Shown in pieces: positions 4,970 to 25,369 of a stretch of DNA of 58,788 bases. Numbering within the stretch: the stretch's first letter is position 1; each line of letters starts with the position of its first letter. The position numbers were made by a program, and so were the translations under genes. Under the pieces are notes generated by a model. The model saw nothing but the letters and a program-made list of their open reading frames with translations. It searched no databases and was not told the DNA's origin. The stretch lies in the NCBI GenBank assembly GCA_020025735.1, contig JAHHRP010000001.1, positions 1 through 58,788 of the forward strand, written 5' to 3'. This DNA is from Evtepia sp. GTDB taxonomy: Bacteria > Bacillota > Clostridia > Oscillospirales > Oscillospiraceae.

Positions 4970-4980
4970 TTTTTCCTCTC

Positions 4981-5013
4981 TTTTCCCACCGTTTTCCCAC
5001 AGCATTCCCACAG
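4981..5013. repeat. Three tandem 11-bp direct repeats immediately upstream of the S-layer RBS
   Basis: ttttcccaccg / ttttcccacag / cattcccacag. Confidence 0.8.
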
Positions 5014-5042
5014 AAAAAGGCCTGTTTTCTCCGATATAAGCC

Positions 5043-5088
5043 AGACAAATTCCCCGGTGTCTGCTAGCAGACACCGGGGAATTTGTCT
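5043..5088. terminator. Perfect 46-bp palindrome, probable terminator of the oxidoreductase operon
   Basis: AGACAAATTCCCCGGTGTCTGCT|AGCAGACACCGGGGAATTTGTCT is its own reverse complement; lies just downstream of stop 5106. Confidence 0.75.
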
Positions 5089-7172: not shown

Positions 7173-7189
7173 AACATACCCCTCCTTCC

Positions 7190-9430
7190 TTACTCTACAA
7201 CAATGGCGCCAAACTTACAGGAAGTAACGCATTGTTTACATTTGATACAAGCGGACTGATTAATAACATGGGTCTCTTTCCGCGCCCCACTGATACATTC
7301 GACAGGACACTTCCGAGCACAAACGGTGCATCCAACGCATTTCGCTGGATCAATCGAGATGGTCAGCAAGGCAGAACATTCACACGCCGGGCATTTCTTA
7401 TCCCGGATGTGGGCTTCATATTCATCCCGGAAATAGCGGATGGTTGTCAACACAGGGTTGGGCGCTGTCTGGCCTAGACCACACAAGGAACCGTCCTTGA
7501 TACTCAGGCACAGTTCTTCCAGCATCTCAATGTCCCCTTCTTGACCTTGCCCTTCACAGATCCGGTTGAGAATTTCCATCATACGTGTGGTGCCGATTCG
7601 ACATGGGACACATTTGCCACAGGATTCTCGGGCAGTGAAATCCAGGAAAAAGCGGGCGATATTCACCATACAGGTGCTGTCATCCATGACCACCATACCG
7701 CCAGAGCCCATAATGGCTCCCGTTGCCGAAAGGGCTTTATAGTCGATGGGGGTCTCCACCAAAGCCGCTGGGATACAACCGCCAGAAGGTCCACCCATCT
7801 GCACCGCCTTGTAGGCACGATCATTCTTGATCCCACCAGCAATATCAAAGATAACATCCTTCAGAGATTTTCCCATAGGCACTTCCACCAGGCCGCCACG
7901 CTGCACCTTACCAGTCAGGGCAAAGACCTTGGTCCCCTTGGAATTCTCCGTTCCCATCGCAGAGAAAGCCTCGCCGCCATTATGAATGATCCAGGCCACG
8001 TTGGCAAAAGTTTCTACGTTATTAATATTGGATGGCTCATTCAAATAGCCGCTCTGTGCGGGGAAGGGAGGTTTCAGACGAGGCATCCCTCGCTTTCCTT
8101 CCATGGATTCGATGAGCGCTGTCTCCTCACCGCAGACAAACGCGCCTGCACCGATTTTGATGTGTAAATTACAGGAAAACCCACTACCCAGAATATTTTC
8201 ACCGAGGAGTCCACGGCTGGTCGCCTGTTCAATGGCTTGACTCAGACGCTCCACTGCCAGGGGATACTCTGCCCGGATATAAACAAACATATCTCTGGCA
8301 CCAATGGCGTACGCACCAATGAGCATCCCCTCAATAAGGGTGTGCGGATCAGACTCGATGAGGGCGCGGTCCATAAACGCACCGGGGTCCCCTTCGTCTG
8401 CGTTACAGATCAGGTGTTTATGTTCCCCTGCTGCTTTCCGGGCTGCATCCCACTTGAACCAGGTGGGGAAGCCCGCACCGCCGCGACCAGCCAGACCAGA
8501 GATCTTGATTTCTTCAATCACTTCCTCTGGTTCCATCTGTAAGGCTTTGTCTAGGGCCTTGTATCCGTCGTGATTGATGTAGTCATCAATGCTCGTGGGG
8601 TTCACCATACCACAGTTTCGCAAGGCAACCCGTTTCTGTTTTTTCAGGAAACGGCTGTCCTCATTGCTAATAAACATCGCCTCCAACTTGGAGAAATCGT
8701 TTTTCCGCACGGCTTCCACGATGCCCAAGGCATCGGTCTCGGTGACACGAACCAGACGATGGAGGAGTTGGTCTCCCTCATAAATGTCCACAATTGGCTC
8801 CAAATAGCACATCCCAATACAGCCGGTGGTTTCCACGGTAAATCTGTCCGTAGCCGTCTTGTGTCCAGATAGGACCTTTGCTACACGGGAGGCACCAGCA
8901 GAGATGCCGCAACTACCCTGACCCACCAAAATGCGGATTCCTTGCCCGGATTCTCGCTGGCGCAGCTGACGAAGAATGGTAATTGTTTTTTCTGGGGTAA
9001 GGTTTCCATAAGTGTCGCCGTTAATCATCATTACAGGGGCCAGTGAGCAGCACCCCAGACAAGCCACCTCGTTGAGGGTAAACATTCCATCTTCTGTGGT
9101 CTCGCCGTCTCCGATCCCCAACTCCTTCGTAATCGCGGTGCGAATGCGCTCAGAACCGTTGACGTGGCACGCGGTTCCGTCACATAGCATGATCTGGTAG
9201 GTACCCATAGGCTTAAGACGGAAGTAGCTGTAAAAGGTTGCTACACCCATCACCTTGGCAGGGCTGTTCCCTGTCCGCTCTGCTACATGGTAAATCACTT
9301 CTTGGGGAAGATAGCCATAGATCGACTGGGCTTGCTGCAAGATCATAATCAGGCTGGTGGTATCGTCCTGGTACTGCCGCAGGACGCCTTCCATCAGGCT
9401 TAGATCGACGCCCGACTTAAACTCGGTCAT
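7190..9430 (-). CDS. Fused NuoE-like + thioredoxin-like 2Fe-2S + NuoF-like diaphorase subunit (HydC-HydB / StnA-StnB fusion)
   Basis: CDGTACHVNG...ACLGCCSLAP (NuoE); GQGSCG...TGCIGMCYLEP; GRGGAGFP, CNADEGDPGAFMDR, GAFVCGEETAL, ESCGKCVPCR; two C-terminal [4Fe-4S] motifs; ATG 9430 after AAAGGAG. Confidence 0.9.
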   Translation of the reverse strand: MTEFKSGVDLSLMEGVLRQYQDDTTSLIMILQQAQSIYGYLPQEVIYHVAERTGNSPAKVMGVATFYSYFRLKPMGTYQIMLCDGTACHVNGSERIRTAITKELGIGDGETTEDGMFTLNEVACLGCCSLAPVMMINGDTYGNLTPEKTITILRQLRQRESGQGIRILVGQGSCGISAGASRVAKVLSGHKTATDRFTVETTGCIGMCYLEPIVDIYEGDQLLHRLVRVTETDALGIVEAVRKNDFSKLEAMFISNEDSRFLKKQKRVALRNCGMVNPTSIDDYINHDGYKALDKALQMEPEEVIEEIKISGLAGRGGAGFPTWFKWDAARKAAGEHKHLICNADEGDPGAFMDRALIESDPHTLIEGMLIGAYAIGARDMFVYIRAEYPLAVERLSQAIEQATSRGLLGENILGSGFSCNLHIKIGAGAFVCGEETALIESMEGKRGMPRLKPPFPAQSGYLNEPSNINNVETFANVAWIIHNGGEAFSAMGTENSKGTKVFALTGKVQRGGLVEVPMGKSLKDVIFDIAGGIKNDRAYKAVQMGGPSGGCIPAALVETPIDYKALSATGAIMGSGGMVVMDDSTCMVNIARFFLDFTARESCGKCVPCRIGTTRMMEILNRICEGQGQEGDIEMLEELCLSIKDGSLCGLGQTAPNPVLTTIRYFRDEYEAHIRDKKCPACECSALLTISIDPAKCVGCTVCARKCPVECISGARKETHVINQSACIKCKQCVTSCKFGAIVVE

Positions 9431-12408: not shown

Positions 12409-12891
12409 TCATGGCATGTCCGGAAAATAGTACTGCACATGCAAATGGCAAGGCAAGATGGCTTCGATCAGTTCTTGGATCTGAATGATATCCGCAGGCG
12501 GTGTCACAATCCCCGGAAAGATGACTTTCACTTGCAACGGATCACCCGTTTCTTCTACCTGTGCAGGGATTCCACACCCGCGCAGAGTATCATTCATGGC
12601 AGCCAGTGTCGCATTGTTGTTTCGAATCCGAAGCAGCGCAGCCGCAGTCTGGCGCAGGCTTTCTGGGTCTTCCTGGCCCACCTGTCGTCCCAACAGATCC
12701 AGCACCTCCTGCAATCCTTCCTCTTGTGCCGTCCAAAGGTTCATCTCCCGCTGGATATGCGTTAGTTCCTGTTCCACCTGATCCATGGCTGCCCCTTCGC
12801 TTTTAAGCTCTCCCCACTGAAAACTTCCCTCCCAACGGTAAACTCCCAGCGGGGTCAAAAGGTCTCTTAAACTCTGTCCATGCCCCATCAC
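12409..12891 (-). CDS. Baseplate wedge protein (XkdU/YmfQ/DUF2313-like)
   Basis: Position after baseplate J; C-terminal IEAILPCHL motif typical of this family. Confidence 0.7.
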   Translation of the reverse strand: MMGHGQSLRDLLTPLGVYRWEGSFQWGELKSEGAAMDQVEQELTHIQREMNLWTAQEEGLQEVLDLLGRQVGQEDPESLRQTAAALLRIRNNNATLAAMNDTLRGCGIPAQVEETGDPLQVKVIFPGIVTPPADIIQIQELIEAILPCHLHVQYYFPDMP

Positions 12892-13943
12892 ATTTCCTCC
12901 ACTGACACGCCCCCCAACACAGGCAGCTGGTTTTCCTTTACGATCACATCGTTCACTGGCCCATCAATGCGGTAATTTGCCACACCAGGGACCTGATGAA
13001 TGCGCTGCGCGATTTCCACCAGCAGCAGATTTCTGCCCAGCATCGTCCCATCAAACCAAGTTTCCATCGCCTGCTTCACTCGTTCGATGACCACTGCCGG
13101 CAGCACTCCTGGCTCAGCCTGCACCGACAAGATTAGCTGAACTGCCACAGGTTCCGGTCCCTTAACAGATAAATCCACCGCAATCTCCCGCTTGGTTTCC
13201 AAATCCTCTAGTACCGTATTCACCAACGTCCGATTGGGCAGACCAGTAGCACTGGCAATGATCACATCTACCGTACCCATCCCACGTGGTTTTGGTATCA
13301 CTTTCACTGCCGCCACTCCTGGTATTGCCAGCGCCTCTTGTGCATAGTAGGCTTTGTTGGTTCCATTGGGAATGTTCCGGTATGTGTCCAGGATTCGCAG
13401 CCGCAGTTCTTCATCCTCTTCTCTTCCCCGTCCCCCAGTAAAGGGGACCGGATTGGTGCAGTCAGACACTCCTGCTGGTGCTACGGCCATGGTCCGCACA
13501 ACCCCCGCTGGGACATTGCCGCCTAGCCCTGGTTCCACTGCTTGGGCTGGGACATCCACGGACAGTTCACCTGCCAGAATGATCGCTTCCCTAGTTGTCT
13601 CAAAGGCTCCACCGCCTGCTGTCATACATACGCTTCCCACAGGTATGGGCAGATTCTCGTTCGCCGCAGATCGGAGAGAGAACCGAAGTTTTCCCTCTGC
13701 CCGTCGACCTGCTATCCGAGTCACCCCTCGTAAGAAGCCATGTTTCTCTAGTTCTTCCCCGGTAGCTGTTTGTGGAAAACACTGCCGCCGGGTCCAGGCA
13801 TTCTCCTCATACAGGCCATAGATCTGCGCTGCCAACGCATATAACCGCACTGCCATCTCACTAGATTCATCTGGGGCAATGCCAGTCTCCAGCACGACCC
13901 GATCCATCATTTCCCGATAAATTTCCTCTACCGTTTTTTTCAT
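12888..13943 (-). CDS. Baseplate J/gp47 family protein (XkdT-like)
   Basis: FPQTATGEELEKHG..RGVTR, AVEPGLGGN, GGRGREEDEELRLRI, PRGMGTVDV; ATG 13943 after GGAG. Confidence 0.9.
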   Translation of the reverse strand: MKKTVEEIYREMMDRVVLETGIAPDESSEMAVRLYALAAQIYGLYEENAWTRRQCFPQTATGEELEKHGFLRGVTRIAGRRAEGKLRFSLRSAANENLPIPVGSVCMTAGGGAFETTREAIILAGELSVDVPAQAVEPGLGGNVPAGVVRTMAVAPAGVSDCTNPVPFTGGRGREEDEELRLRILDTYRNIPNGTNKAYYAQEALAIPGVAAVKVIPKPRGMGTVDVIIASATGLPNRTLVNTVLEDLETKREIAVDLSVKGPEPVAVQLILSVQAEPGVLPAVVIERVKQAMETWFDGTMLGRNLLLVEIAQRIHQVPGVANYRIDGPVNDVIVKENQLPVLGGVSVEEM

Positions 13944-13959
13944 CTTCACCGCTCCCTTC

Positions 13960-14301
13960 TCACAGAGGGACAGACGCCACCAGGCTCTCTCCCCGCCAAC
14001 GCAAGGCAACATCTAACCGCTCAGCCGCCTCATTCCAGACGGCCCCTTCTACCTGCAACTCTTTCTCGCCGGCCAATGCCTCCGCAGCGTAGCTGGCTCC
14101 CATCGCTCCTCGGCTGGAGGGTTTTTCACGCATCAGAAGATGTAATCTGCTGCCTAATTGGGGCAGCAGCGGAAAACTGCCCCGCCGGACTGAAAGGAGA
14201 AAGAGGACCCGCTCCAGGACCCCCTCCACTCCATCACTGGAAGCAAAGCCTCCTTTTCCATCGAGGCAGTAATCCCCCTCTCGCAGATGGGTTACACTCA
14301 T
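13960..14301 (-). CDS. Baseplate/sheath initiator protein (gp25/gp46/XkdS-like)
   Basis: LSVRRGSFPLLPQLGSRL motif; ATGA overlap with spike gene; position. Confidence 0.75.
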   Translation of the reverse strand: MSVTHLREGDYCLDGKGGFASSDGVEGVLERVLFLLSVRRGSFPLLPQLGSRLHLLMREKPSSRGAMGASYAAEALAGEKELQVEGAVWNEAAERLDVALRWRGESLVASVPL

Positions 14302-14666
14302 TTCCCCACCTCCAGTCCATTCACGTTCAGGCTCCCGGTGATCTCCACGGGTCCTTTCAAATGGATCTTTCCGTCTCTGCTCAAGCGCAGTTCCACATCT
14401 GGAGATACGGACAGCCACACCTCATTGGTGGAAGACGCCATTGGCGCCCCCACCACACAGGGTGTTCCCTCTGGGCCACTCTTCACCACCAACACCGTCT
14501 CTCCCCGTGCAGGGGTCCAATGATAGCCTCCCGGCAGGCAAACGGTCACATTTCGCCGTTCCCCTGCCAGCGCAACTCCCATATCCACTCCAGACAAAGT
14601 AACCTGACCCAGCTCTGCTGGAGGTTCCTTTAGAATCTCTTCTCCTTTACCTCTTGCCATCCACAT
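14298..14666 (-). CDS. Short baseplate spike protein (gp45/gpV/XkdR-like)
   Basis: PGGYHWTP..GETVLV OB-fold-like segment and C-terminal beta-strand repeats (IHLKGPVEITGSLNVNG). Confidence 0.7.
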   Translation of the reverse strand: MWMARGKGEEILKEPPAELGQVTLSGVDMGVALAGERRNVTVCLPGGYHWTPARGETVLVVKSGPEGTPCVVGAPMASSTNEVWLSVSPDVELRLSRDGKIHLKGPVEITGSLNVNGLEVGK

Positions 14667-14682
14667 AACAAAAAACGCTCCT

Positions 14683-15636
14683 TCACAGAACTGCCTGAGG
14701 CGTACCCAGGATCAATCTTGTCTCATAACCGCTTTCCCCCAAGGTCACCCGACTCTCCCGAACGCGATACAGACCATTGCCGCTCCATCCTGCCCTGGTC
14801 AGCCGCACGAGATCCCCTGGCCAAGCAGCAAAGGGCAGTGCTACGGTCACTTCCACTTCCAGCAGATCTGCTGCCGAACGATCCAACTGGAACCTAGCCT
14901 GATACCGTCTTGCCTGAAACCCAGTGTTTTTTGGCAGCAGGATCACCCGGCTGCACTGACCTCCCCGGCGCTGGAAGTCGCTGTTCACTTCTGTCTGGCG
15001 TGTCCATCCGGTTACATCTTTCACTGTCACCTGCGACAAGACCCCATAGCGTTTATCTCGCCGAACCACCCGTGTCACAGGTGCATCCATGTCCAGTTCT
15101 ATTGGGTCTGCTGTGGGCCAGGGATGCAGCGCCAGTTTACCTTCTCTGGTGAAGCGGGGGGTTACGCCACCGTGGTACCGTGCAAAATCGTACAGCACCT
15201 TCCAGCAGCTGCTTCCTGAGGACACAGAAAATCCCCATACCGCTGGCAGAAAAACCCGCCGTTCCAGACCAATCCCAAAGGGTGTGACATACCGCCGCAA
15301 GATTTCCTCTAATGTGGCCTGACCATAATCTGCTGCCTCAGCCTGGTTGTCCAAGAGCAGTGCCTGAAGGCCCCGGCCGGTGATTTCTGCCATACATCCT
15401 TCCTGGGACCACTGGCACTGGCACTCATCTATCACGCCAAGAAACTGCAATTTTCCTTTCTGTTTTACCTGTACACGCACACCATTGGCCAGTTGATCCT
15501 CTTTGCCTGCCGACCAGAGGAATTTGACCCAAAAGCAGTCACAAGGGGAGCCAAGGCCATAGTCCAGCTGCCAGGCCACAGGTGTTGGAAGGAAGTATTC
15601 CCTTCCGTCATAACAAATGAGTTTCCACTCTATCAT
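14683..15636 (-). CDS. Baseplate hub protein (XkdQ/gp44-like)
   Basis: FLGVIDE...ITGRGLQALLLDNQA; C-terminal PGDLVRL...YRVRESRVTL; position after the LysM gene. Confidence 0.75.
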   Translation of the reverse strand: MIEWKLICYDGREYFLPTPVAWQLDYGLGSPCDCFWVKFLWSAGKEDQLANGVRVQVKQKGKLQFLGVIDECQCQWSQEGCMAEITGRGLQALLLDNQAEAADYGQATLEEILRRYVTPFGIGLERRVFLPAVWGFSVSSGSSCWKVLYDFARYHGGVTPRFTREGKLALHPWPTADPIELDMDAPVTRVVRRDKRYGVLSQVTVKDVTGWTRQTEVNSDFQRRGGQCSRVILLPKNTGFQARRYQARFQLDRSAADLLEVEVTVALPFAAWPGDLVRLTRAGWSGNGLYRVRESRVTLGESGYETRLILGTPQAVL

Positions 15637-15640
15637 TTTC

Positions 15641-16231
15641 TCACCCCACTCTCAGCCGCAGTCCTGCCTGGATCACATTCGGATTTTTGATCTGGGGATT
15701 CCATACCAGAAGTTCTCCCAATGTGGTTCCATATTTCTGGGCGATTCCCCACAAGGTTTCTCCTGTCACCACTGTGTGGTATACCGCTCCTGCTGGAGGC
15801 TTTGGCAAGGCAGGGGCTGGGCCACTTCCTCCCCCTGTATTGGTCTGTTTCTTTCTGGTTGTCAGCGTATCCTGATACTTATCATAGTCCTCCCAAAAGG
15901 TAAAGGTATAGCGCACATAGTCCTTCCGTGGCTCTTGGGCCAGGGATAATGCCACGAAATACACGCTAGCGCTCTGCCACACTGGATGGAACAATGCACC
16001 TGGTCCGTCGTCATAAAAGACCGTAGCCAGTTTCTTAAAATCCTCATAGGCTGATGGGCCAAAGAACTCACCTTCCCCTCGCATGACGCGCCGTCCCAGG
16101 CCCAAGTCCTGCATAGCGTATCGGCCGAAAGGCACTTTATGTACTGCCACTTTCCGCTCATATTCGATGGAGTAGGTCCTGGGATTATGGGGCCAGATAA
16201 AGCTCTTATACCGCATGGGACTCAGTTCCAC
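15641..16231 (-). CDS. Tail tube initiator with C-terminal LysM (XkdP-like)
   Basis: LysM HTVVTGETLWGIAQKYGTTLGELLVWNPQIKNPNVIQAG; N-terminal phage tail domain; GGAGG RBS. Confidence 0.85.
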   Translation of the reverse strand: MELSPMRYKSFIWPHNPRTYSIEYERKVAVHKVPFGRYAMQDLGLGRRVMRGEGEFFGPSAYEDFKKLATVFYDDGPGALFHPVWQSASVYFVALSLAQEPRKDYVRYTFTFWEDYDKYQDTLTTRKKQTNTGGGSGPAPALPKPPAGAVYHTVVTGETLWGIAQKYGTTLGELLVWNPQIKNPNVIQAGLRLRVG

Positions 16232-16251
16232 CGCGACACCTCCTTCGTTCC

Positions 16252-16755
16252 TCAGTAGAGGGAAAACCCTCCGTCGTACCGGCGGGCATCCCGCTGTACT
16301 GCGCGATCCAGCGCTTCCCAGTCCTGATTTTTTTCTCCTGTTGTTGACTCCACAGTCAGCACAGTGGGAAGCGGCGTACCGCTGTGTAACGCTGTGCGGG
16401 ACAAACGGGTTGCGTGACCTAAGGCTTCATATAGCTGACTTGGCGTCATGTTGCTGGCTTGTCCAGCTGTCCAGTCCAGGGGGACAGGAGAGAATTTTTG
16501 CTGTGCTTTCATTCCTAGTCCATGGGGGGCAGCCATCCTATCATCTGTGCCAGCTACTTCCTGGTCCATTTCTCCTTGCGCTGCAACTGTCGTTCCATCT
16601 AGCGCCACAGATCTAGCAGAAGCGGCATCTGTGGCGAGAGGCATCTTTTCCTCTGCCCGTTTTTTCCGGCCAAATACAAACCCCCGCCGTCCTTTTTGGC
16701 GAGGCAGGGATTCCTCCGTTTCTTCGTCCAGGATCGCTTCCAAATAGTCGATCAC
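16252..16755 (-). CDS. Putative very short tape-measure protein (167 aa)
   Basis: Occupies the TMP slot between chaperone and LysM genes; Ala/Thr-rich; GTGA coupling; positional call only. Confidence 0.45.
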   Translation of the reverse strand: MIDYLEAILDEETEESLPRQKGRRGFVFGRKKRAEEKMPLATDAASARSVALDGTTVAAQGEMDQEVAGTDDRMAAPHGLGMKAQQKFSPVPLDWTAGQASNMTPSQLYEALGHATRLSRTALHSGTPLPTVLTVESTTGEKNQDWEALDRAVQRDARRYDGGFSLY

Positions 16756-17381
16756 GGTTTCTCCCCCTTCTTCATCCGCTCAAAGCGCGACCAGTCAAAG
16801 GCAGGGTTTTCTTCCTGGGTGATTGTTCCGGTTTCCTGACCACATACTGGGCACCGCTCTTTCTCTGCCTCTGCTCGACAGACAGGGCACAGTCTGTCAA
16901 GCTCTTCTTCCTCATCCAGCAGCAGGTTTACCGCGCACCACAGGTAGTCCTCCTCCGTCATATTTCTGGCTCTTTTTTCCGTGGGCAAAGCGCCAAATTC
17001 CCGCAGGACCCGCCAGCGCAAGCGTTGCCAGGGCAGTTTTTTCAACCGTTCCTTCAGCTGGGAGATCTGCACAGGCTGTCTCTCCTGCCGATATTTCGCG
17101 GTCCACTGTCGGGCCATCTGCTCTACTTTGGGTCCTGATAGCTGTTTCAGCGCAGCTTCTCCTGAAGGGTATACTCGTTTGCCTCGTCGCCGCAAGGCGC
17201 GAGCTGTTAGGCAGGCGTTGTCCCAGAGGGCATGTGTTTCCTCATCGGCATCGCCTGCCAACGCGCGGGCCTCCTCCCGAGCCAGCAGCAGTTCCCAGGG
17301 CGGAAGGTTTTCCAACTGGCCTTTTGGTCTTTGCCATGGGGGACAGATTTGCCACCATTTTCCCAATTTTCTCACTCTCAT
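16752..17381 (-). CDS. Putative tail assembly chaperone with C-terminal CPVC-x8-CPVC motif
   Basis: Follows the tube gene with ATGA overlap; helical composition; GALPTE...MTEEDYLW resembles the T-chaperone segment. Confidence 0.55.
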   Translation of the reverse strand: MRVRKLGKWWQICPPWQRPKGQLENLPPWELLLAREEARALAGDADEETHALWDNACLTARALRRRGKRVYPSGEAALKQLSGPKVEQMARQWTAKYRQERQPVQISQLKERLKKLPWQRLRWRVLREFGALPTEKRARNMTEEDYLWCAVNLLLDEEEELDRLCPVCRAEAEKERCPVCGQETGTITQEENPAFDWSRFERMKKGEKP

Positions 17382-17767
17382 GCTGCGGTTTCAATCCGTC
17401 TGCTTGCCACCACTGTGACCTTTTCCATCACCGACGCGCCCAAGGTTCCACTCTCCCCGATTTTACTCCACTGGCAGCCGCTGTAAATCACCCGTCGGTC
17501 AGGTTTACAGATGACCAGGCTGAAATTTTCCAGGCTATAGAAGTCGATTCCATCGGCAAGGGCCTCATCGGTCGCATAGATTCTGGTCAGTTCCAGCACA
17601 TGTTTACTTTGTCCTGGGAGCGTTGCCACGGGTTCTTTTTCTCCAAAGGCTTCGATGGTGGTGCTGCTCTTTGTGCTTTGGACAGTATAGCTCTGTACCA
17701 CTGCCACTTTTTTCCCGTTCACTTCCAGATAGATGTCACTACTGGTTGGGATTAAAATTGCTGCCAT
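17378..17767 (-). CDS. Tail tube protein (129 aa)
   Basis: Directly after the sheath gene; beta-rich; DIYLEVNGKKVAVVQS...IYSGCQW; ATG 17767 after AAGGAG. Confidence 0.75.
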   Translation of the reverse strand: MAAILIPTSSDIYLEVNGKKVAVVQSYTVQSTKSSTTIEAFGEKEPVATLPGQSKHVLELTRIYATDEALADGIDFYSLENFSLVICKPDRRVIYSGCQWSKIGESGTLGASVMEKVTVVASRRIETAA

Positions 17768-17780
17768 TGTCACACTCCTT

Positions 17781-18827
17781 TTACACGGTGATCTGGGCAC
17801 TCAGCCAGATCTGATTGAGACCCTGCGCTACGTTGAAGGAAAAGGTCACCAGACAGACGGTGGGTCTGTCCTCCAATCCCTGAACAACCACATCTCCATA
17901 GCCGGTAATGATTTCTGCGGCCAATTTTCTTTCCAACTCCAAAATCACCTGGGAGCGCACAGCACCTCTGGTCTGTGCTGTGTTTTTGGCCCGTGGGAAT
18001 CGTGCCCGCAGGGCATCTCGAATACTGGGGATGACATCGTCCACCACCAGGATCGTTTCCAACTCCCGCCATGTGCTGTCGGGGGCCGATCCCGTTTTGG
18101 TTCTGGTTGTCACACCTCGAATGACGATACACCGTCCACCTGATAATTCCATTGGTGTCACACCGCCCTGAATCAGGGCATCCAGTTCTTCTTCGGTGTA
18201 TCGTGCGGTCAAGGCAGATATCCCCATCAGAGCCACGCCGCCCAGTGGGAGCGCGGGATCTGCCTGCCCACAGATAGCGCCTGCCACCGCCGCTGCAACC
18301 AGCGCGCCGCCCTCCTCAGAGGATACACTGGGCGCTGTCAAAACCATCCGCTCGCTGTTGAGTCCTTCCGCGTGGGTCACCAGTTGGGTAACCGTCTCAT
18401 TCCGGCCACCGGGAACCACGGCGATGCGTTCTCTTCTTGCCAAGGCGTCGGCAGCGACCTGATCTCTCAGCGCCTGCTGGGTCTGCAAATCCTCACTGTC
18501 GCAGACAATCACCCGCACATTTTCCTGCTGCCCCAGCAGAGCAAAGGCGCCAGCATAATTTCCATTTTCCCCCACAGGCACAGCCAGCACCCTGGCAGCG
18601 CCGTTGGCCAAGAGAACCTTTACCATTTTTGCCATTGTGTCGTCCTGCCCAAATATCTCGACAGCTTCCCGCCAATTCCCCAGGGAATAGAGGGTATCCG
18701 CTGTCCCAGTCTTACTTTTTGCAGCCACTGCCGCCCATCCCCTCCGACCAGCGGAGGTCACCACAGCGGAGGCTTCGTAAACCGAATATACTCCTGGCCG
18801 CTCATGGCTGGTCACCACATTACTCAC
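17781..18827 (-). CDS. Contractile tail sheath protein (short, 348 aa)
   Basis: N-terminal RPGVY; LIQGGVTP...IRGVTT; ILVVDDV..IR sheath C-terminal motifs. Confidence 0.9.
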   Translation of the reverse strand: MSNVVTSHERPGVYSVYEASAVVTSAGRRGWAAVAAKSKTGTADTLYSLGNWREAVEIFGQDDTMAKMVKVLLANGAARVLAVPVGENGNYAGAFALLGQQENVRVIVCDSEDLQTQQALRDQVAADALARRERIAVVPGGRNETVTQLVTHAEGLNSERMVLTAPSVSSEEGGALVAAAVAGAICGQADPALPLGGVALMGISALTARYTEEELDALIQGGVTPMELSGGRCIVIRGVTTRTKTGSAPDSTWRELETILVVDDVIPSIRDALRARFPRAKNTAQTRGAVRSQVILELERKLAAEIITGYGDVVVQGLEDRPTVCLVTFSFNVAQGLNQIWLSAQITV

Positions 18828-19324
18828 AGTACGATCTCTCCTTTCACCTCAAAGCCCAGGATCTCTCCTGATTCCTCTGTCACAGCTACCAGCGTTCCCC
18901 GGCAGACCGCCTGGAGTTTCCCGCGGAACATTCCGCAGTTCCGGTCAAAGTCCGTCTCTCCCATGGCCCATTTCTCTACGGCGAATCCAGCAGGTCCTGC
19001 CTGAAGCAAAGCCGCAGCCACCTTATCCAGCAGGAGGCGACAGCCCTCCTCCCCTGCGGATCTTGGGCTGTACAGGGTCAGAAGGAACTTAACGGTCACC
19101 CGCTGCCCGTAGCGTTCGGTCCATTTTCTGGCGATATCGTCGTAGCTTTGTCCCAAGTAGTTTTGAAATCCTGCTGCGCTGGCTTCGACTTCTTTGATTT
19201 GAACCACAGCCACAGGTCCTTTCTGTTCCTGCCGATGTTCCATAGGCCAAGCTGTCATGGCGGGGATTCCTGCTGCTGTCAAATAATCTGTCATAGCCTG
19301 TCGGAGTGTTGTGAGGGTTGTCAC
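18824..19324 (-). CDS. Tail terminator / head-tail joining protein (166 aa)
   Basis: GTG at 19324 overlapping the previous stop, GAGGAGG RBS; position before the sheath. Confidence 0.6.
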   Translation of the reverse strand: MTTLTTLRQAMTDYLTAAGIPAMTAWPMEHRQEQKGPVAVVQIKEVEASAAGFQNYLGQSYDDIARKWTERYGQRVTVKFLLTLYSPRSAGEEGCRLLLDKVAAALLQAGPAGFAVEKWAMGETDFDRNCGMFRGKLQAVCRGTLVAVTEESGEILGFEVKGEIVL

Positions 19325-19659
19325 AAAGCATCCTCCTCTCTTCTCTGGAGCACGACTCGCCAATAGATTCTTTCCTGTCCTGCCTCTACGGGGCGGACAT
19401 TGATGACATTGTATTGTTCTTTTCCGGCCTTTACGGTCTGTTCTTCCGGTCCTGTAAGGAAAGGAATTGCGCTCTGAGCGAGACACAGGACCTGATCCCA
19501 GCGCTGATTTCCTATTTGCGAAGGCAGCCACTGGCACTGTCGATTCAGGACTGGGCGGAGTATCGCTCTACCCCGTCCGATCTCTGTTTCATTTCGGCAC
19601 AGGATCACCTCCTGGCCATACCTGGCGGCAATGGCCTCAAAACTGCTGGCAAAGCTCAT
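19321..19659 (-). CDS. Head closure (stopper) protein
   Basis: Second neck gene; RYGQEVIL N-terminus and beta-rich C-terminus; ATGA overlap. Confidence 0.55.
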   Translation of the reverse strand: MSFASSFEAIAARYGQEVILCRNETEIGRGRAILRPVLNRQCQWLPSQIGNQRWDQVLCLAQSAIPFLTGPEEQTVKAGKEQYNVINVRPVEAGQERIYWRVVLQRREEDAL

Positions 19660-20048
19660 CCCTGCACCTCCAAGAAAGCGAAGGCACCATCCTGCACATA
19701 GGGAGCCATCAAGGTCTCTGCCTGACTCTGGAGGCTTTTGGCGCAGGCATCACCTCCCTGATTTTGCTGGGCATGTACCGTGAGATCTCCGGCAGAAAAG
19801 GAGAGGGGGGAAGGGCTGCTTTGTTCCATGGCTCCGGTCATTCCTGCCAAAGCACTCCAAGCGCTGGCTACTACCATCAGGTCCCTGATATTCTCTTCCA
19901 GTACATCCTCCCGCAGGCGCTGACGCCAGCTGGTCAGGGCAGCAGCGCACAGGATGGAGAGGACTTCTGCCTCTCCATCTGTCAGCTGCCGACCAGCAAA
20001 ACACAGGGCGACCTCCACGATCTCCTGTTCCTGAATCATGCTGCTCAC
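19656..20048 (-). CDS. Head-tail adaptor protein
   Basis: Follows MCP; SFSAGDLTV and LMAPY motifs typical of gp6/gp15-like adaptors. Confidence 0.65.
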   Translation of the reverse strand: MSSMIQEQEIVEVALCFAGRQLTDGEAEVLSILCAAALTSWRQRLREDVLEENIRDLMVVASAWSALAGMTGAMEQSSPSPLSFSAGDLTVHAQQNQGGDACAKSLQSQAETLMAPYVQDGAFAFLEVQG

Positions 20049-21088
20049 CCCTTGACGGTGCCGATTTCCAGGACCTTGGATGCCTCCTGGAAGATTTTTG
20101 CAAAGCCGGAAATGGAGGTAATGGCAGCCCGCTCCAACTGGCGATCAATGAGCTTATCGTACTCTACCAGCACGTCGCTGCCGCGTACCATTTCCAGGGC
20201 ATAATTTTTGTCAAGCCCGATAATGGTCCCGGAGGGGACAGCGCTGCTTCTGAGCAGTGTTGCACCCATCGGTGTGACCAACTTCCCGGTACCCTGGAAG
20301 GTCAAGCCTGCGGTACCGTCCTGCATTTCCTTTAGTTTAAGGACCTGTGCCATTGCATCTCCTACCAGCAGGGTGTTCATGGCATAGGGGTCAAACTGGC
20401 TCCAAAAATCCACCAGTGCGTCATAGGTCAGGGTACCGGCGGTCCCAGTGATGGGGCTTGTACCCACGGTGTAAACCTTGGCTGCATTGCTGTTTCCGTC
20501 GCCATGCAAGAGGACATCAATGGCATCACTCACATGCATACGGTTAATGTAGGCACCGATCTGCCGCAGGGTAACGGAGAAGAGGTCCAAGCGCTGGAAT
20601 TGAATGGCTTCGTACGAAGCCACGAGCATCCGGCCGCGTTTGTGCAGCTGGACGAGATTTTCCTGGGCTTTGACTTGGGTTTCAGGGATAAGCGCACCTT
20701 CTGCCACCATTTTGAGGGATTTTTCATCTTCTGTGGGGGTAGAGGCGATGGAGCGGTAATCCATGCCTGAGATTCTAGTTTCTGCTGCGGTCATCATGGG
20801 CAGGATATTGCTTTCCTCCATCCCCTGGCGGACCGCTCTTGCGACATATTCTGGGAAGAGGACTGCCGACTCCCAGGTTGCGAAGAACTTAGAGACGACG
20901 TCAGAATCTGCGCCTTTCACTTTGATGTCAAAGCGCTTGAGCTGGCGCTGGAATGCGTCGAGGTTCTCCATTGGGGTCCCCTTGTATTGTTCCGAGGGGT
21001 CACACTGCTCCAGCACCTTAGTAAAGGAGCGACCAGACTCCCGATACATCCCCTTGTCGAGCTTCACCGTTTCAAACTGATATGCCAT
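20045..21088 (-). CDS. Major capsid protein (HK97-like fold, 347 aa)
   Basis: LFPEYV..AV, VAEGALIPE, LHKRGRMLVASYEAI, LLHGDG motifs; ATG 21088 after AAGGAG. Confidence 0.9.
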   Translation of the reverse strand: MAYQFETVKLDKGMYRESGRSFTKVLEQCDPSEQYKGTPMENLDAFQRQLKRFDIKVKGADSDVVSKFFATWESAVLFPEYVARAVRQGMEESNILPMMTAAETRISGMDYRSIASTPTEDEKSLKMVAEGALIPETQVKAQENLVQLHKRGRMLVASYEAIQFQRLDLFSVTLRQIGAYINRMHVSDAIDVLLHGDGNSNAAKVYTVGTSPITGTAGTLTYDALVDFWSQFDPYAMNTLLVGDAMAQVLKLKEMQDGTAGLTFQGTGKLVTPMGATLLRSSAVPSGTIIGLDKNYALEMVRGSDVLVEYDKLIDRQLERAAITSISGFAKIFQEASKVLEIGTVKG

Positions 21089-21114
21089 AGTTTCTGACTC
21101 CTTTCTTTCTGTTC

Positions 21115-21465
21115 TCAAAGGAACAGGCCCATGGTTTTGCTGTTGGTGTCCATCTGAACCACCAAGCAGACCCTACCTGTCTCACCGCTGCCGGCCAGAC
21201 GCAGGCCGCCGGTTCCGTCGGCCACCATCTGGTTCCAGCCCAGAGTGGGTGCGGTACCGCCAGTGTAGTTACACTTGACATATCCGCGAATCTGGACAGC
21301 AGCATGCTCCCCTCGTTTGTTAAGTACAAGTCCCACCGGAGCCGTACTAGCGGGTGCGTCTTTCACCGTGTCGTTTTCGCTCATTGCGGCAAAATTTCCT
21401 GCTGTGACTGCTCCTGCCTGGAATGTAACCACCAGGCTTTCCATTCCGTTAAATGCAACTGCCAT
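21115..21465 (-). CDS. Capsid decoration/cement protein (DUF2190-like)
   Basis: 116 aa, Gly/Ala/Val-rich, between protease and MCP; strong AGGAGG RBS. Confidence 0.65.
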   Translation of the reverse strand: MAVAFNGMESLVVTFQAGAVTAGNFAAMSENDTVKDAPASTAPVGLVLNKRGEHAAVQIRGYVKCNYTGGTAPTLGWNQMVADGTGGLRLAGSGETGRVCLVVQMDTNSKTMGLFL

Positions 21466-21497
21466 TGTTGAAGTTCCTCCTTTTTTATTCCTGTGGT

Positions 21498-22457
21498 TTA
21501 GATCACAAAGGATTTGTCATCCTCTGTCTGTCTATCTTCCTTCCCGCCATAGCGCAGCTGCACGGGCAATGCCATCCGCTTTTCCAGCTGCTTTTGGTAG
21601 CAGGCTTTCAGTTCTTCCAGTTCTTCTTCCTCCAGCTTATCGGCGATGGTTTGGAGGGTTTTTTCTTGTAATCCTGCCTGTGCCATCAAGCCCAAGCGCA
21701 CCGTTTCCTGGCGCAGATTGTCCAGGTATCGGCGGCCTGCGGCAGCTTGACGCTGTAACAGGCGCAGTTCATCCTGCCAGCTTCCTTCTCTATCCAGGCC
21801 AGCCAGGACCTGTGCCAGGTTTCCGTCCTTTCTTAGGCCTTTGACCACACCGGCTCTAGGCTGTGCAGGCACGGCAACGAAAGACCACTCAAAGGCATCG
21901 GTTGGCTCTGCCAGGCGAACGATGCAGCGTTTTCCTTCATAGAGTCTCCCCTTAACGTGGCTGCATGTAGAGCGATCGTGAATATCGTTGCCGCAGATAG
22001 AGCATACACAACCTTCCACCGCGCAGCTGACACTGACCTCTTTTTTGATTCCTCCTTGGATTTCTGCAATGAGTCCGGCGTTTTCCTCCGTCCGAAGCAT
22101 ATAGGCATATCCTTTTAGGTAACACCCCGGCTCACCGGCCTCACTCACCATTCCCTGCTCGTCCACAATCTCAGTGCGATAGATCCGCGCAGTCTGGTCC
22201 TTTGCGCTCCAACTGTGGTCAAAGATCCCGGTCTTTCCCACGAAAAGTTCGGCCAGTTTTTCCAGATCTTGTCGGCTGAAATATTCCTGATCTCGGTCTG
22301 TCTGGTTGTCACACAGCCGCACGGCGAAGGTATAGATCTCCTCTTCGGTCAAGCTGGTGCCGTTGAGACTGTTGATGGCTTCTAGTTCTCCTGCCACTGC
22401 TCCTGCCACCGGGTCATTCTGTCCCTGGGTCTGGGCTTCTTTGGTCACTGTCTGCAT
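21498..22457 (-). CDS. Prohead protease fused to a scaffold-like coiled coil
   Basis: DRD.EYF, GKTGIFDH, KKEVSVSC, EWSFVAVPAQPRA protease-like motifs; CSICG..C.H insert; charged helical C-terminus. Confidence 0.75.
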   Translation of the reverse strand: MQTVTKEAQTQGQNDPVAGAVAGELEAINSLNGTSLTEEEIYTFAVRLCDNQTDRDQEYFSRQDLEKLAELFVGKTGIFDHSWSAKDQTARIYRTEIVDEQGMVSEAGEPGCYLKGYAYMLRTEENAGLIAEIQGGIKKEVSVSCAVEGCVCSICGNDIHDRSTCSHVKGRLYEGKRCIVRLAEPTDAFEWSFVAVPAQPRAGVVKGLRKDGNLAQVLAGLDREGSWQDELRLLQRQAAAGRRYLDNLRQETVRLGLMAQAGLQEKTLQTIADKLEEEELEELKACYQKQLEKRMALPVQLRYGGKEDRQTEDDKSFVI

Positions 22458-23655
22458 GGCTTTCCTCCTTTTCTTCCTGGGTTTTTTTCTTATCTTCCTT
22501 TTTCAGGCTATCATTTGCCAACTGCTCTGCCTGTTGCCGGTAGAGGACCGCGCGGGCTTTTTCGACCTGATCCTGGAGATTAATTTCCTGCCAATCGACT
22601 TGAAAATCACAACTTTTCCCGTGCATTCTCAGCCACATCCTGCAAATTTTTTCCATCATAGGGGTTAGTGTCCGGCGCAATGCAGTAAGCTCACTGGTCA
22701 TGATATCTGCCTGCTGGCTGCTCATGCGTTCTGTGGAGGACCAATTAAGCCCCAGCAGGAAGGGTGGGATTCCGGTCTGGGAGATGAGCTGTTCCAAGAT
22801 CAGGCGTACAGGGGTTTGGCAGTCTGGAATGTCACATTCTGCTCCGATGACCTTAATTTCCACATCACCGACTGTAACGAAGTCTCTCACGGAGCCGTTT
22901 CTGGTGTTTTCCATGGCTTGGGACCAGCGTTTTGCGAGCAAGTTTCCTCGTTCCTGTACGCGGCGCTGATCCAGGCCATCTTCTGGTTTGTAGACAACAG
23001 CGAATCGGACATTGCCGGCGCGTTCCCAGTTATCCCCTAGGGTCTGATAAATTTTAAGCAGGATACTCGATAAGAAGGGCATCCCATGCAGGAGGGACTG
23101 GCCGTAGGGGTTCTCTGGGCTGGCGTGATAGGGGGTAAATAACAGCAGGTCCTGTCGAGGCAGGATCTCTGTGTGTCCATCTGGCTGTCGCAGGGCCAGG
23201 TGGAGTTCTAAGGGGGAGTCCCCTTCTTTCACTTCGATATCAGAGATATTTCCGCACAGGACGGCGGCGATTTCTCGTCCATCCCTGCTTGGCACAATTT
23301 CCCCCACAGCTCTGCCACAGGTGAGCAGGCAGTCCAGGTAGCTGTCCAAAAAGGATTGAATTCCTCTTTGATTCCAGCCGGTTGGAACGGTGCGCAGGAA
23401 GTGGTTGAGTTCTTCCTCCACGGCTTTGTCCTCGCACACAGCGGCTACCCCTCCAGCCAGACGCACCAATTTTAAGATTGCAGCGTCCACCACAGGAATC
23501 GCCTCCCGGATTGCGCGATACAGCGAGAACTCGGGCTGATGCAAGGGCACATACCCGTCGATCATTTGAAAGGGGTGTCGCTGTGCAGGTCTCATCTGGA
23601 TAGCGCCTGGTACTGTTTCTGTTGGTTGATGTTTTCTACCTTTCCAAAGTCCCAT
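22414..23655 (-). CDS. Phage portal protein
   Basis: Follows TerL; IPVVDAAI, PYGQSLL, TGIPPFLLG motifs. Confidence 0.85.
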   Translation of the reverse strand: MGLWKGRKHQPTETVPGAIQMRPAQRHPFQMIDGYVPLHQPEFSLYRAIREAIPVVDAAILKLVRLAGGVAAVCEDKAVEEELNHFLRTVPTGWNQRGIQSFLDSYLDCLLTCGRAVGEIVPSRDGREIAAVLCGNISDIEVKEGDSPLELHLALRQPDGHTEILPRQDLLLFTPYHASPENPYGQSLLHGMPFLSSILLKIYQTLGDNWERAGNVRFAVVYKPEDGLDQRRVQERGNLLAKRWSQAMENTRNGSVRDFVTVGDVEIKVIGAECDIPDCQTPVRLILEQLISQTGIPPFLLGLNWSSTERMSSQQADIMTSELTALRRTLTPMMEKICRMWLRMHGKSCDFQVDWQEINLQDQVEKARAVLYRQQAEQLANDSLKKEDKKKTQEEKEESHADSDQRSPDPGTE

Positions 23656-23676
23656 CTCATCCTCCTTCTGGTTGAT

Positions 23677-24933
23677 TTAGAGCCGCCTCTCCACATAGCC
23701 AGCAAAGAAGGGATCGTCCCCTTCTTCTGGTGCTGCCACCGTGGCCACGAAGTAGCGAATCTCGTCCATAGCGTGGTCAAACTCTTTTCGCACTTTATCC
23801 TTGTCGCCGGCGTTCAGGTCCCAGCAGTAGGCGCTGAATTCCCGAATGGCATCCTGGCATGGGGTGCAAATCACGATTTTCCCCGTTTTCAAGGCATCTG
23901 CCGTCAGCCGGATTCCTGAGAGCACGTCATTGTTTGCCTTTCTCACGTTCCATCCTTCTCGGCGCAGCACTTCCAGGAAGGAAGCCGCTGAGGGGTCTGC
24001 CACTACCGCCTCGATCTCATGACCTCCCGCCAGTTCCCGCAGCCGCTGGGCGTATTCCTGATCGGTCTGCTGCTGCCGGGCGAGTCTGGCATCGTAGTAA
24101 TACTCCCGCACCCGGTACCAGATGCCGTTGTATTTCCCCCAAAGCCCCATAGAGGTGGGGTTCAGGGTTCCGTAGTCGCAGGAGATAACCCATCGCTCTG
24201 CCTCTCCTACTGGGGGTGGTCTGACCATATTTTCGTCGAAAAAATCGTATACCAACCCTTCGGCTGCCGTCCATTCTCCCAAAACGAAGCGGCGATAGAA
24301 CGCCCCCTGAAAGGCTCTCTCGTAGCGCTGTCTAGTCTCTGGGGCCAGGGTGGGGTTATCCTCCATAAAGAAGCGCAGGTGCAGCAGATTTCTCTCTTCT
24401 GCTTTACAGATCCACTCTCTGTAAAACCAGTGGGCAGGTCCAGCTGGGTTGCAGGAGAACCAGAACTTAGCTCCTGTCACGGAGCACCGGGCACAGGCCT
24501 GTTCCACAAAGGATCTTGGCATCAGTGCCACCTCATCCAGCAGCACGCCAGCCAGGGTAATGCCTTGGATGAGTGCGGCACTGCCTTCGTCCTTACCGCC
24601 GAAGAGGAAGTAGGTGTTTTCCACGCCGGCATAGCGGACCTTGAGCCAATTTTTTGAAATTTTCTCTTCCCAGTCAAAGCCCAGCATCTCCAGCACAGGC
24701 AGCACACTATAAAGGAGGTTCCTCCGTACAGATTGTGTTGTTTTGCCGCATAATGCGAATTGTTGATGGCGGAAGCGCGTCATACTCCAAAGGATGAAGG
24801 ACAGGCCCAGGCACATGGTCTTTCCGCTTCTCACGGCGCCATCACAGACGATGGCATCTTTCTCCTTGTAAGGGGAGCCTCTGGTCCACCATCCAAGGAC
24901 CTGTTTTTGCTTGTCTGAAAAGCGCAGGCTCAT
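23677..24933 (-). CDS. Terminase large subunit (PBSX family)
   Basis: Walker A GAVRSGKT, Walker B VLLDEV, SCNP, nuclease DYG, DPSA, DHAMDEIRY. Confidence 0.95.
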   Translation of the reverse strand: MSLRFSDKQKQVLGWWTRGSPYKEKDAIVCDGAVRSGKTMCLGLSFILWSMTRFRHQQFALCGKTTQSVRRNLLYSVLPVLEMLGFDWEEKISKNWLKVRYAGVENTYFLFGGKDEGSAALIQGITLAGVLLDEVALMPRSFVEQACARCSVTGAKFWFSCNPAGPAHWFYREWICKAEERNLLHLRFFMEDNPTLAPETRQRYERAFQGAFYRRFVLGEWTAAEGLVYDFFDENMVRPPPVGEAERWVISCDYGTLNPTSMGLWGKYNGIWYRVREYYYDARLARQQQTDQEYAQRLRELAGGHEIEAVVADPSAASFLEVLRREGWNVRKANNDVLSGIRLTADALKTGKIVICTPCQDAIREFSAYCWDLNAGDKDKVRKEFDHAMDEIRYFVATVAAPEEGDDPFFAGYVERRL

Positions 24934-25244
24934 CGCTGACTGGTCATCTCCTGTTGGGTGGGAGGGCGATCCAGAGCCTCCAAGAAGGCGGCGGCGCCCT
25001 TTCCATCCTCCTTCATCTGATCCAATAGTTTTTCCAGCACAGCAGCTCGATCTGTGAGTTTCACTTCCACAGCACCGTTGCTGCTGCGTTTGAATTCTGT
25101 AAGGCAGCCTAAGTTTAGCTTATCAATCTCCTCCATTCTTTCTTCGCTGAGGTAGGCCAGTTTTACAGCGTCGTTGGCCGCGCCTGCGGCCAGGGACATC
25201 ATTTGTTCCAGCACACCTCGTCGGTCTACTTTTTTCTTTCCCAT
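24930..25244 (-). CDS. Putative terminase small subunit (104 aa)
   Basis: Upstream of terL with ATGA overlap; VEVKLTDRAAVLEKL resembles the TerS oligomerisation motif; GGAGG RBS. Confidence 0.7.
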   Translation of the reverse strand: MGKKKVDRRGVLEQMMSLAAGAANDAVKLAYLSEERMEEIDKLNLGCLTEFKRSSNGAVEVKLTDRAAVLEKLLDQMKEDGKGAAAFLEALDRPPTQQEMTSQR

Positions 25245-25369
25245 AAAAATCCCTCCTCACCCTACCTGGTAACACCCCTTCTACGGGGACGTTTTCGTAC
25301 ACGTTTTTAAAAAATTTTTTTATTTTTTTGAAAAATACGGAAAAAATCCTGTCTACGCACTTTTTTCTG

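Follow-up and report, generated by a model that had tools for sequence, protein, structure and literature searches.

A 19-gene head and contractile-tail cluster beside nrdD in Evtepia sp.: probable domesticated phage operon of the gene transfer agent or PBSX kind

What kind of element is a stand-alone run of phage head and contractile-tail genes that lies among the ordinary genes of a gut bacterium? The question is raised by a cluster of 19 open reading frames (ORFs) in Evtepia sp. (Oscillospiraceae, Oscillospirales; GenBank assembly GCA_020025735.1), which runs on the minus strand from position 25244 down to 12409 of contig JAHHRP010000001.1. The stretch analyzed, referred to here as the window, comprises positions 1 to 58,788 of that contig. 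An original prediction, made from the letters of the window, had proposed a vertically inherited particle resembling either a gene transfer agent (GTA) or the PBSX particle of Bacillus subtilis. Conserved synteny, a congruent tree, synonymous divergence equal to that of host genes, low ratios of nonsynonymous to synonymous change and the failure to find relatives inside complete prophages support this proposal, and in our view the cluster is probably a 'viriform' of the GTA/PBSX kind, a structural operon of phage origin that was domesticated and that the host lineage has kept by vertical descent. The signature of domestication is seen in the genomes; GTA-like and PBSX-like behaviour are not separable from genes alone.

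The co-oriented set of head, neck, contractile-tail and baseplate genes that had been described spans 12.8 kb, and 10 of its 18 gene junctions carry 4-nt stop-start overlaps, in line with the many overlaps first noted. Scans against Pfam, PHROGs and NCBIfam, combined with gene position, place all 19 genes in structural or packaging types. The particle-part roles proposed for them are backed by family matches for the large terminase (TerL), the portal, the major capsid protein (MCP), the sheath, the LysM protein, the hub and the Baseplate_J protein; genes g7–g9, g11–g13, g16 and g17 are named mainly by position or weak matches (Table 1). Neither these 19 genes nor the window flanks were found to include an integrase, a repressor, or any gene for replication, lysis or fibres. 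The cluster genes are single-copy in their own genome, and their GC content (54.8% vs 52.7% for the genome) stands at the 82nd percentile of 85 same-size windows, within the host range, as had been judged by eye.

Within the genus, a single portal match was detected in each of 19 of the 24 other species genomes, at 64–80% identity. Ten of these 19 carrier species were fetched for comparison of synteny, and all ten show the same gene order directly beside nrdD, which in the window begins 330 bp past g19, just as predicted. All 19 genes were detected in eight of the ten species, 18 in G001 and 17 in G008. Stop codons were present in only 5 of the 225 matched stretches, always close to an end (first 10 or last 18 residues). 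The flank on the side of the small terminase (TerS) gene varies among the ten species and holds host genes, including regulators; no integrase was found on it. Conserved single-copy synteny, one of the checks suggested with the original prediction, is therefore what the genus displays.

Patchiness and pseudogenization had been named as points to watch, and loss proved rare, with one deletion remnant seen. In species G016 the site (L034:14627-17692) holds an intact TerS gene and a TerL gene cut after ~179–189 amino acids (aa); next come an AT-rich insert of 1.4 kb that contains small, unrelated ORFs, then g19, itself intact, and nrdD. The portal and capsid genes are absent. This remnant is evidently a deletion scar at the orthologous site. 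The contigs of G023 and G006 stop just past nrdD and are hence uninformative on loss of the cluster.

In the closest pair of species (G002 and G014), synonymous divergence (dS) ranges from 0.08 to 0.50 across the cluster, with a median of about 0.36; the values for the host genes are 0.33 for nrdD and 0.35 for a NuoF-like gene. The ratio of nonsynonymous to synonymous divergence (dN/dS) of the same pair lies between 0.00 and 0.28 for all 19 genes, well below 1 as anticipated. A tree of 16 concatenated cluster proteins shares all nodes of the nrdD tree with support of at least 98, and one weak host node (support 82) conflicts. The congruence that had been expected of a vertically inherited locus thus holds at every well-supported node.

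We obtained a consistent picture from phage and virus databases. Portal relatives occur in 6 of 50,697 phage records, five of which are faecal contigs titled 'UNVERIFIED: Bacteriophage sp.' (42–57% identity); the sole isolated phage with a portal relative shows 27% identity. One faecal phage contig carries the cluster from TerS to the hub and ends inside the hub gene, and another carries the head module beside nrdD-like and NuoF-like genes. Two of these GenBank faecal contigs with the cluster or its head module, L032 (MT835769.1) and L033 (MT835508.1), look like fragments of bacterial chromosomes, not phage genomes. At least 484 relatives are present in IMG/VR; among the best 80, many are proviruses trimmed to about 12–14 kb and 5 exceed 20 kb. 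Two of the long records, both rated 100% complete (G784, behind L231, and G783, behind L220), consist of the cluster and an adjacent unrelated prophage: in G784 the neighbour has its own integrase, repressors, primase, helicase, TerL, capsid, tape measure and amidase, and G783 contains a second TerL besides that of the cluster. The other three long records hold only the TerL of the cluster and are rated 16–19% complete; in one of them (G785) an integrase lies ~15 kb beyond g19. Such composite records mean that automated prophage callers can misreport the cluster as part of a full phage. The check for homologues inside complete prophages accordingly returned none, the two 'complete' IMG/VR proviruses each being the cluster beside an independent prophage.

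The family of clusters reaches well beyond the genus. A scan of species genomes confirmed at least 580 portal relatives; the best 80 of these (54–77% identity) carry titles such as Flavonifractor, Pseudoflavonifractor, Oscillibacter, Dysosmobacter, Intestinimonas, Lawsonibacter, Vermiculatibacterium and Hominicoprocola, and include many metagenome-assembled genomes (MAGs) titled 'Oscillospiraceae bacterium', from human and animal guts. Most loci of the best 80 have an identical gene set in identical order. Carriers include the named isolates Oscillibacter valericigenes, Pseudoflavonifractor phocaeensis, Vermiculatibacterium agrestimuris DSM 112226 and Hominicoprocola fusiformis. A draw of 396 high-quality species genomes of the family gave a portal match in 184 of them and in 58 of 101 genera, with two matches in five listed genomes and one in the others. 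The span from TerS to g19 is 12.1–13.3 kb (41 loci), and the 12–13-kb architecture persists across genera whose portals are only 52–64% identical. In a draw across the order, relatives were frequent in three families (16/36, 20/36 and 13/36 genomes), rare in three and not found in 20; portal identity outside the family is 40–49%, with one exception at 54%. A protein search from a relative in one other family returned Thermocaproicibacter and Caproiciproducens-type organisms. When 71 portals from 14 genera are placed on a tree, the genus label switches 13 times, which is the lowest number possible; shuffled labels switch 49–59 times.

The surroundings of the cluster were also viewed in ten other genera, 8 kb to each side. 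Host genes such as those for MreB, SmpB, Hsp90 and EPSP synthase were found there; the scan viewed the 25 most frequent of 141 families, so that a single integrase might go unseen. An orthologue of g19 closes the cluster in all ten. In two of them a Phage_holin_4_1 gene follows directly on the same strand (L122:5097-5651 in G110 and L125:15493-15936 in G184), and in a third genus the following gene encodes an NAGPA (phosphodiester glycosidase) domain (L136:4984-5670 in G114). The predicted lack of integrase, repressor, replication, holin–endolysin and fibre genes consequently stands for the window and fails, as regards the holin, for some relatives. No homologue of the holins or other genes that follow g19 in other genera was found in the genome carrying the window.

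Two variant layouts were observed. Relatives of 8–10 kb (L076:8418-16656, L052, L089, L092 and L103; also G761, G706, G662 and G680, L203-L212) share the head module and have LysM and hub genes together with a small tube-like gene, with no sheath match; L076 additionally has neither the wedge nor the Baseplate_J gene. These reduced relatives look like a non-contractile or podovirus-like derivative of the cluster family. Separately, the usual head order (TerS, TerL, portal, protease, small head protein, MCP) is rearranged to TerS, TerL, small head protein, MCP, portal, protease in L138:36-3008 (G220) and L252:1-5121 (G785).

The TerS gene shows a truncation that can be traced among its relatives. 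Its maximal ORF has a median length of 112 aa in 68 relatives, and long forms with an extra N-terminal segment of ~50 residues occur at 7 of 64 loci. All four long forms scanned match Terminase_2 over positions 2–129, above the cut-off; among four short forms scanned, three match from approximately position 58 only and one has no match. In an alignment with a 155-aa orthologue, residue 5 of the window TerS falls on residue 58, and the orthologue itself matches Terminase_2 at 5–128 with 44.7 bits. The N-terminal part of Terminase_2-type TerS proteins is a helix-turn-helix DNA-binding domain, as seen in the SF6 and SPP1 structures. Judged by the alignment and the Pfam coordinates, the window TerS is without this domain. 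A TerS profile matched no PDB sequence, and an AlphaFold2 (AF2) model (pLDDT, the predicted local distance difference test, of 65) gave no credible match to PDB folds, which leaves the claim of a missing domain resting on the Pfam coordinates and the longer orthologues.

A further feature is the short space for a tape measure. Conservation of g13 is confined to its last 20–60 residues, and orthologues match at the C terminus only; no match to the protein was found in Pfam, PHROGs, NCBIfam or the ESM Atlas. Over 57 loci, the gap between the tube gene and the LysM gene measures 182–1520 bp (median 1154 bp), and no member of the family could therefore encode a long tape measure there. By the rule of thumb of ~1.5 Å of tail per tape-measure residue, the 167-aa product of g13 would correspond to a tail of ~25 nm.

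The assignment of the individual genes is summarized in Table 1. The TerL has further matches to Terminase_6N (8.8e-11), Terminase_6C and phrog_2 (2e-43). The portal is without a Pfam match and without an NCBIfam match at E ≤ 0.01. For g4, the AF2 model (pLDDT 77) has as its closest PDB fold the T4 gp21 protease (5jbl; prob 0.99, E 1.6e-3, template modelling score for the target, TM(target), 0.50), His81 and Ser142 are invariant across 15 orthologues, and helices come after the protease domain; these features fit a protease–scaffold fusion, the protease label being drawn from the predicted fold. A g4 profile gave nothing but spurious matches to PDB sequences. The start of the MCP is likely the methionine of MAYQFE, and g17 likely starts at MSVTH. 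The position of g7 is kept in ten of ten species of the genus, the conserved portion of g9 comprises residues 73–237, and a search with g12 in the ESM Atlas returned nothing usable.

Table 1. Genes of the cluster and the upstream palindrome copy, with window coordinates and the matches on which each label is based (E-values unless stated otherwise).
Feature	Assignment	Position	Strand	Length	Basis
g1	small terminase	24930..25244	-	104 aa (maximal ORF)	Pfam Terminase_2 positions 59-129 of 141 only, 23.2 bits (cut-off 26.1)
g2	large terminase, PBSX-family type	23677..24933	-	418 aa	TIGR01547 'PBSX family' 176.4 bits (cut-off 105.05)
g3	portal	22414..23655	-	413 aa	phrog_30703 7.6e-152
g4	putative prohead protease with C-terminal helical scaffold-like region	21498..22457	-	319 aa	phrog_16951 (function unknown)
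g5	small virion/head protein	21115..21465	-	116 aa	phrog_4588 'virion structural protein' 3.5e-25; decoration role putative
g6	HK97-type major capsid protein	20045..21118	-	357 aa (maximal ORF)	PF25209 8.6e-16; phrog_3922 2e-121
g7	neck/head-completion protein	19656..20048	-	130 aa	position; no match in Pfam, PHROGs, NCBIfam
g8	neck protein	19321..19659	-	112 aa	weak head-closure likeness, phrog_161 Hc1 at 0.0027 only
g9	neck or tail-terminator slot	18824..19537	-	237 aa (maximal ORF)	phrog_25177 (function unknown) 1.9e-60
g10	contractile tail sheath	17781..18827	-	348 aa	Phage_sheath_1 5.6e-13; Phage_sheath_1C 2.1e-10; phrog_279 6.8e-41
g11	tail tube	17378..17800	-	140 aa	position straight after sheath; phrog_27038 (function unknown) 7.5e-65
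g12	tail-chaperone slot, C-terminal CxxC...CxxC	16752..17381	-	209 aa	weak: phrog_25000 at 0.0053; rubredoxin-like motif
g13	tape-measure slot	16252..16755	-	167 aa	position only
g14	baseplate/tube-initiator protein, C-terminal LysM	15641..16231	-	196 aa	LysM 3.8e-14; DNA_circ_N 1.8e-6; phrog_184 baseplate hub 3.2e-10
g15	baseplate hub, Mu gp44-like	14683..15636	-	317 aa	phrog_177 3.6e-45; Gp44-like_2nd at 0.0015
g16	spike slot	14298..14666	-	122 aa	position only; phrog_25991 (function unknown) 1.3e-34
g17	gp25/GP46-like wedge slot	13960..14418	-	152 aa (maximal ORF)	weak: PF07409 at 0.0045; phrog_180 at 0.0013
g18	Baseplate J-like wedge protein	12888..14012	-	374 aa (maximal ORF)	PF04865 6.4e-49; phrog_6 1.4e-69
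g19	Mu Gp48-like tail protein, final cluster gene	12409..12891	-	160 aa	PF10076 1.3e-4 (below curated cut-off); phrog_521 4.7e-10
palindrome	degenerate copy TGTACGAAAACGTCCC	25286..25301	-		57 nt upstream of TerS ATG; matches 8/10 defined positions

Upstream of TerS, the family shares a 16-bp palindrome with the consensus TG[CT]A[CT]-N6-[AG]T[AG]CA, which lies 44–108 nt before the TerS start and is preceded by an A/T tract (25304-25330 in the window). A perfect copy stands at this position in 8 of 11 species of the genus, at 30 of 57 loci with short TerS and at 6 of 7 with long TerS; with one mismatch or none, the counts are 47/57 and 7/7, compared with a background of 51 perfect copies and 240 with at most one mismatch in 5000 windows. 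The palindrome is probably an operator or promoter element. Its TGTA-N8-TACA layout resembles sites of the CRP/FNR-NtcA type. No recognizable DNA-binding regulator is encoded in the cluster, so the factor is presumably encoded elsewhere. A hairpin, CCCC-GTAGAA-GGGG, is located at 25275-25288 between the degenerate palindrome and the ribosome-binding site, and is common to the nearest species G009 and G022. Response-regulator/histidine-kinase pairs, or parts of them, were seen just upstream of TerS in species of the genus (L015:6753-8973 in G017, L018:3884-5332 in G001 and L034:13505-14194 in G016), and similar two-component genes occur in Oscillibacter- and Dysosmobacter-type loci (L085, L072 and L094, at about 5480-7300); their proximity may be coincidence or a clue to regulation.

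The genes that flank the cluster belong to the host. On the TerS side a CBS-domain gene in divergent orientation lies at 156 bp, and the genes for RNase Y and YmdB come after it; this corrects the original prediction, which had a sporulation-type gene at ~195 bp. A 215-aa ORF after the CBS-domain gene has no family match. No tRNA was found in the window and no recombinase on its contig; the genome has just two tyrosine recombinases, both on other contigs. Scans of the cluster for sigma-70 promoters (10 vs 6.5 in shuffled sequence, standard deviation (sd) 2.0) and terminators (17 vs 13.5, sd 3.6) gave numbers near expectation. At 1001-5074 (minus strand) the window encodes a 1357-aa protein with S-layer homology domains, which is unrelated to the cluster.

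Several known systems can be compared with the cluster. Its likeness to PBSX, drawn from genes alone, consists of a host in Bacillota, a head with a contractile tail, and a TerL in TIGR01547. The tail and baseplate genes of PBSX follow the order sheath, tube, chaperone, tape measure, LysM protein, hub, Baseplate_J and Gp48/XkdU-like, and the order in the cluster agrees with it. In contrast to PBSX, the cluster has no xre/xpf-type regulators, repressor, late sigma-like factor, holin–lysin genes or fibre gene, and its portal matches no NCBIfam family, although NCBIfam includes a PBSX portal model; its 167-aa tape-measure slot and 12.8-kb locus differ from a tape measure of >1000 aa and a locus of about 28 kb in PBSX. 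RcGTA of Rhodobacter capsulatus has a structural cluster of ~14–15 kb without replication or integration genes, is vertically inherited over a large clade, and carries a TerS with lost DNA specificity that is reported to be without the N-terminal domain; its regulators, lysis and fibre genes lie elsewhere in the genome. This is a likeness in logic; no sequence relationship was seen, none having been sought, and RcGTA differs in being siphovirus-like and alphaproteobacterial, whereas the cluster has a contractile tail.

FpGTA of Faecalibacterium is described as podovirus-like, with 10 ORFs, no sheath, and lysis and fibre genes at a locus II; its TerS has no obvious DNA-binding domain, and the element is near-ubiquitous in its genus (PMC12946183). 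By description only, the two share a gut host in Oscillospirales, a stand-alone TerS–TerL–portal–scaffold–MCP operon and a TerS without an obvious DNA-binding domain. The portal and MCP of FpGTA I are RCH50851.1 and RCH50849.1. Set against this description, the cluster differs in its 19 ORFs, among which are a sheath, a tube slot and the complete set for a baseplate, and a search of its genome gave no second locus; the sheath-less 8–10-kb relatives look closer to the FpGTA layout. Two protein searches from relatives in other families returned no Faecalibacterium name.

These elements suggest how the system might work. A regulator encoded elsewhere would act on the palindrome upstream of TerS and turn on the 19-gene operon. 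Portal, protease–scaffold, MCP and small head protein would then build a prohead, which a PBSX-family (headful-type) TerL and a TerS lacking its DNA-binding domain may fill with little or no sequence preference. The neck proteins would couple the heads to a contractile tail that is unusually short and carries a Mu/PBSX-type baseplate, whose LysM protein might bind peptidoglycan, and release and receptor binding would rely on genes located elsewhere. In this reading the locus would give rise to particles, package DNA non-specifically and deliver it.

Several observations weigh against a domesticated operon maintained for its function. The cluster is dispensable: it was not found in 5 of the 24 other species of the genus, two of them represented by genomes that are 99% complete, and no portal match was found in 212 of the 396 family genomes. 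In distant pairs, dN/dS of the cluster genes is 0.1–0.8, with 0.6–0.8 reached for g5, g7, g8 and g13 compared with 0.08–0.15 for host genes; cluster proteins thus evolve several-fold faster than host proteins, and some of the small ones are weakly constrained. The site next to nrdD is not conserved in any of the ten other genera. Full-length TerS is kept in 7 of 64 relatives, so that the family has not lost the DNA-binding domain throughout, and the right half of the palindrome is degenerate in the window and likewise in its two nearest species. Neither a PF05105 holin nor a fibre gene was found in the genome carrying the window, and the particle may hence be incomplete. Finally, clustering of portals by host genus is likewise expected of temperate phages with a narrow host range, and the portal tree counts only alongside the other evidence.

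Three classes of element are rejected by gene content. An R-type tailocin does not fit, TerS, TerL, portal, protease and MCP all being present; capsid and terminase genes had already led the original prediction to set it aside. An intact temperate prophage would have integrase, repressor, replication and lysis modules contiguous with its structural genes, and these are absent from the window and from ten of ten species of the genus; the integrase beside the relative in G784 is part of the separate neighbouring prophage, to which a distinct TerL, capsid and tape measure also belong. A capsid-forming satellite is excluded by the presence of tail genes and by the lack of an integrase or replication gene.

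Among the explanations that remain, the most serious is a killer particle of the PBSX type, in which DNA-filled myovirus-like particles would kill related cells by tail contraction, deliver no DNA productively, and be selected through competition. To our knowledge, PBSX is the only characterized myovirus-type GTA-like element of Bacillota. Its particle is cited as one that does not inject DNA (PMC12946183). The contractile tail with its Mu/PBSX-type order from sheath to Gp48-like protein and a TerL within the NCBIfam PBSX family point in this direction, and none of the present findings contradicts killing as such. Against it stand the portal without any NCBIfam match, the absence of regulator, lysis and fibre genes from the cluster, and the small tape-measure slot, with which the tail cannot resemble the long tail of PBSX; all told, we regard a killer particle as unlikely. 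Far less probable is an element moving horizontally with a helper, or the structural half of a split phage, with integration and replication supplied in trans. The two IMG/VR records with a complete prophage directly beside a cluster relative, the change of chromosomal site among genera and the full-length TerS of some relatives would suit such an element. Those prophages are, however, unrelated to the cluster: each brings at least a separate TerL, and the one in G784 a capsid and a tape measure as well; moreover, the constant site and synteny in ten of ten species of the genus, dS equal to that of host genes, the absence of genus mixing in the portal tree and single-copy occurrence in nearly all genomes argue against horizontal movement.

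The idea of an inert remnant of a defective prophage, a leftover structural module without present function that drifts to loss, draws on the internal deletion in G016, the failure to find the cluster in about half of the family genomes, the high dN/dS of some small genes at larger divergence and the degenerate operator in the subclade of the window. We hold it to be the least probable of these explanations, as it is opposed by the near-complete gene sets of the ten other species (none below 17 genes) with no internal stop in any match, by the low dN/dS of the closest pair at a dS equal to that of the host, and by the retention of the 12–13-kb architecture across genera with divergent portals. 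A domesticated structural operon of the GTA/PBSX kind therefore remains the reading we favour.

A more specific version of this reading can be put forward tentatively, at somewhat less than even confidence. The clusters might form an ancient Oscillospirales GTA lineage that supplies the missing genetic basis of the packaging reported in Oscillospiraceae: a miniature myovirus with a tail of a few sheath rings, a TerS whose lost DNA-binding domain would lead to non-specific packaging, a conserved host factor acting on the CRP/FNR-type palindrome as switch, and sheath-less 8–10-kb derivatives that link it to podovirus-like gut GTAs. The accessible texts of two reports bear out the earlier statement that such packaging occurs in gut members of the family, both without a locus. 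GTA-like packaging was described in an Oscillospiraceae MAG (Onthomonas) with no locus given (PMC12946183), and GTA-like coverage in Pelethomonas, another member of the family, with no convincing gene cluster (bioRxiv 10.64898/2026.07.08.737213). We found no published description of the cluster in searches that included gene transfer agents of Oscillibacter/Flavonifractor and PBSX-like elements of Clostridia; supplements may bear on its novelty.

Taken together, the gene content, its distribution and its descent make the cluster a strong candidate for the gene-transfer particles that have been reported, without being identified, in Oscillospiraceae. The cluster family fits the expected signature and is present in about half of the family species genomes searched; as it also occurs in named isolates, it offers a concrete locus for testing in culture. 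If active, it would follow PBSX as only the second GTA-like element of myovirus type in Bacillota, one whose tail is unusually reduced and whose TerS has lost its DNA-binding domain in a way that can be traced, and it would be a major path by which genes pass between abundant anaerobes of the gut.

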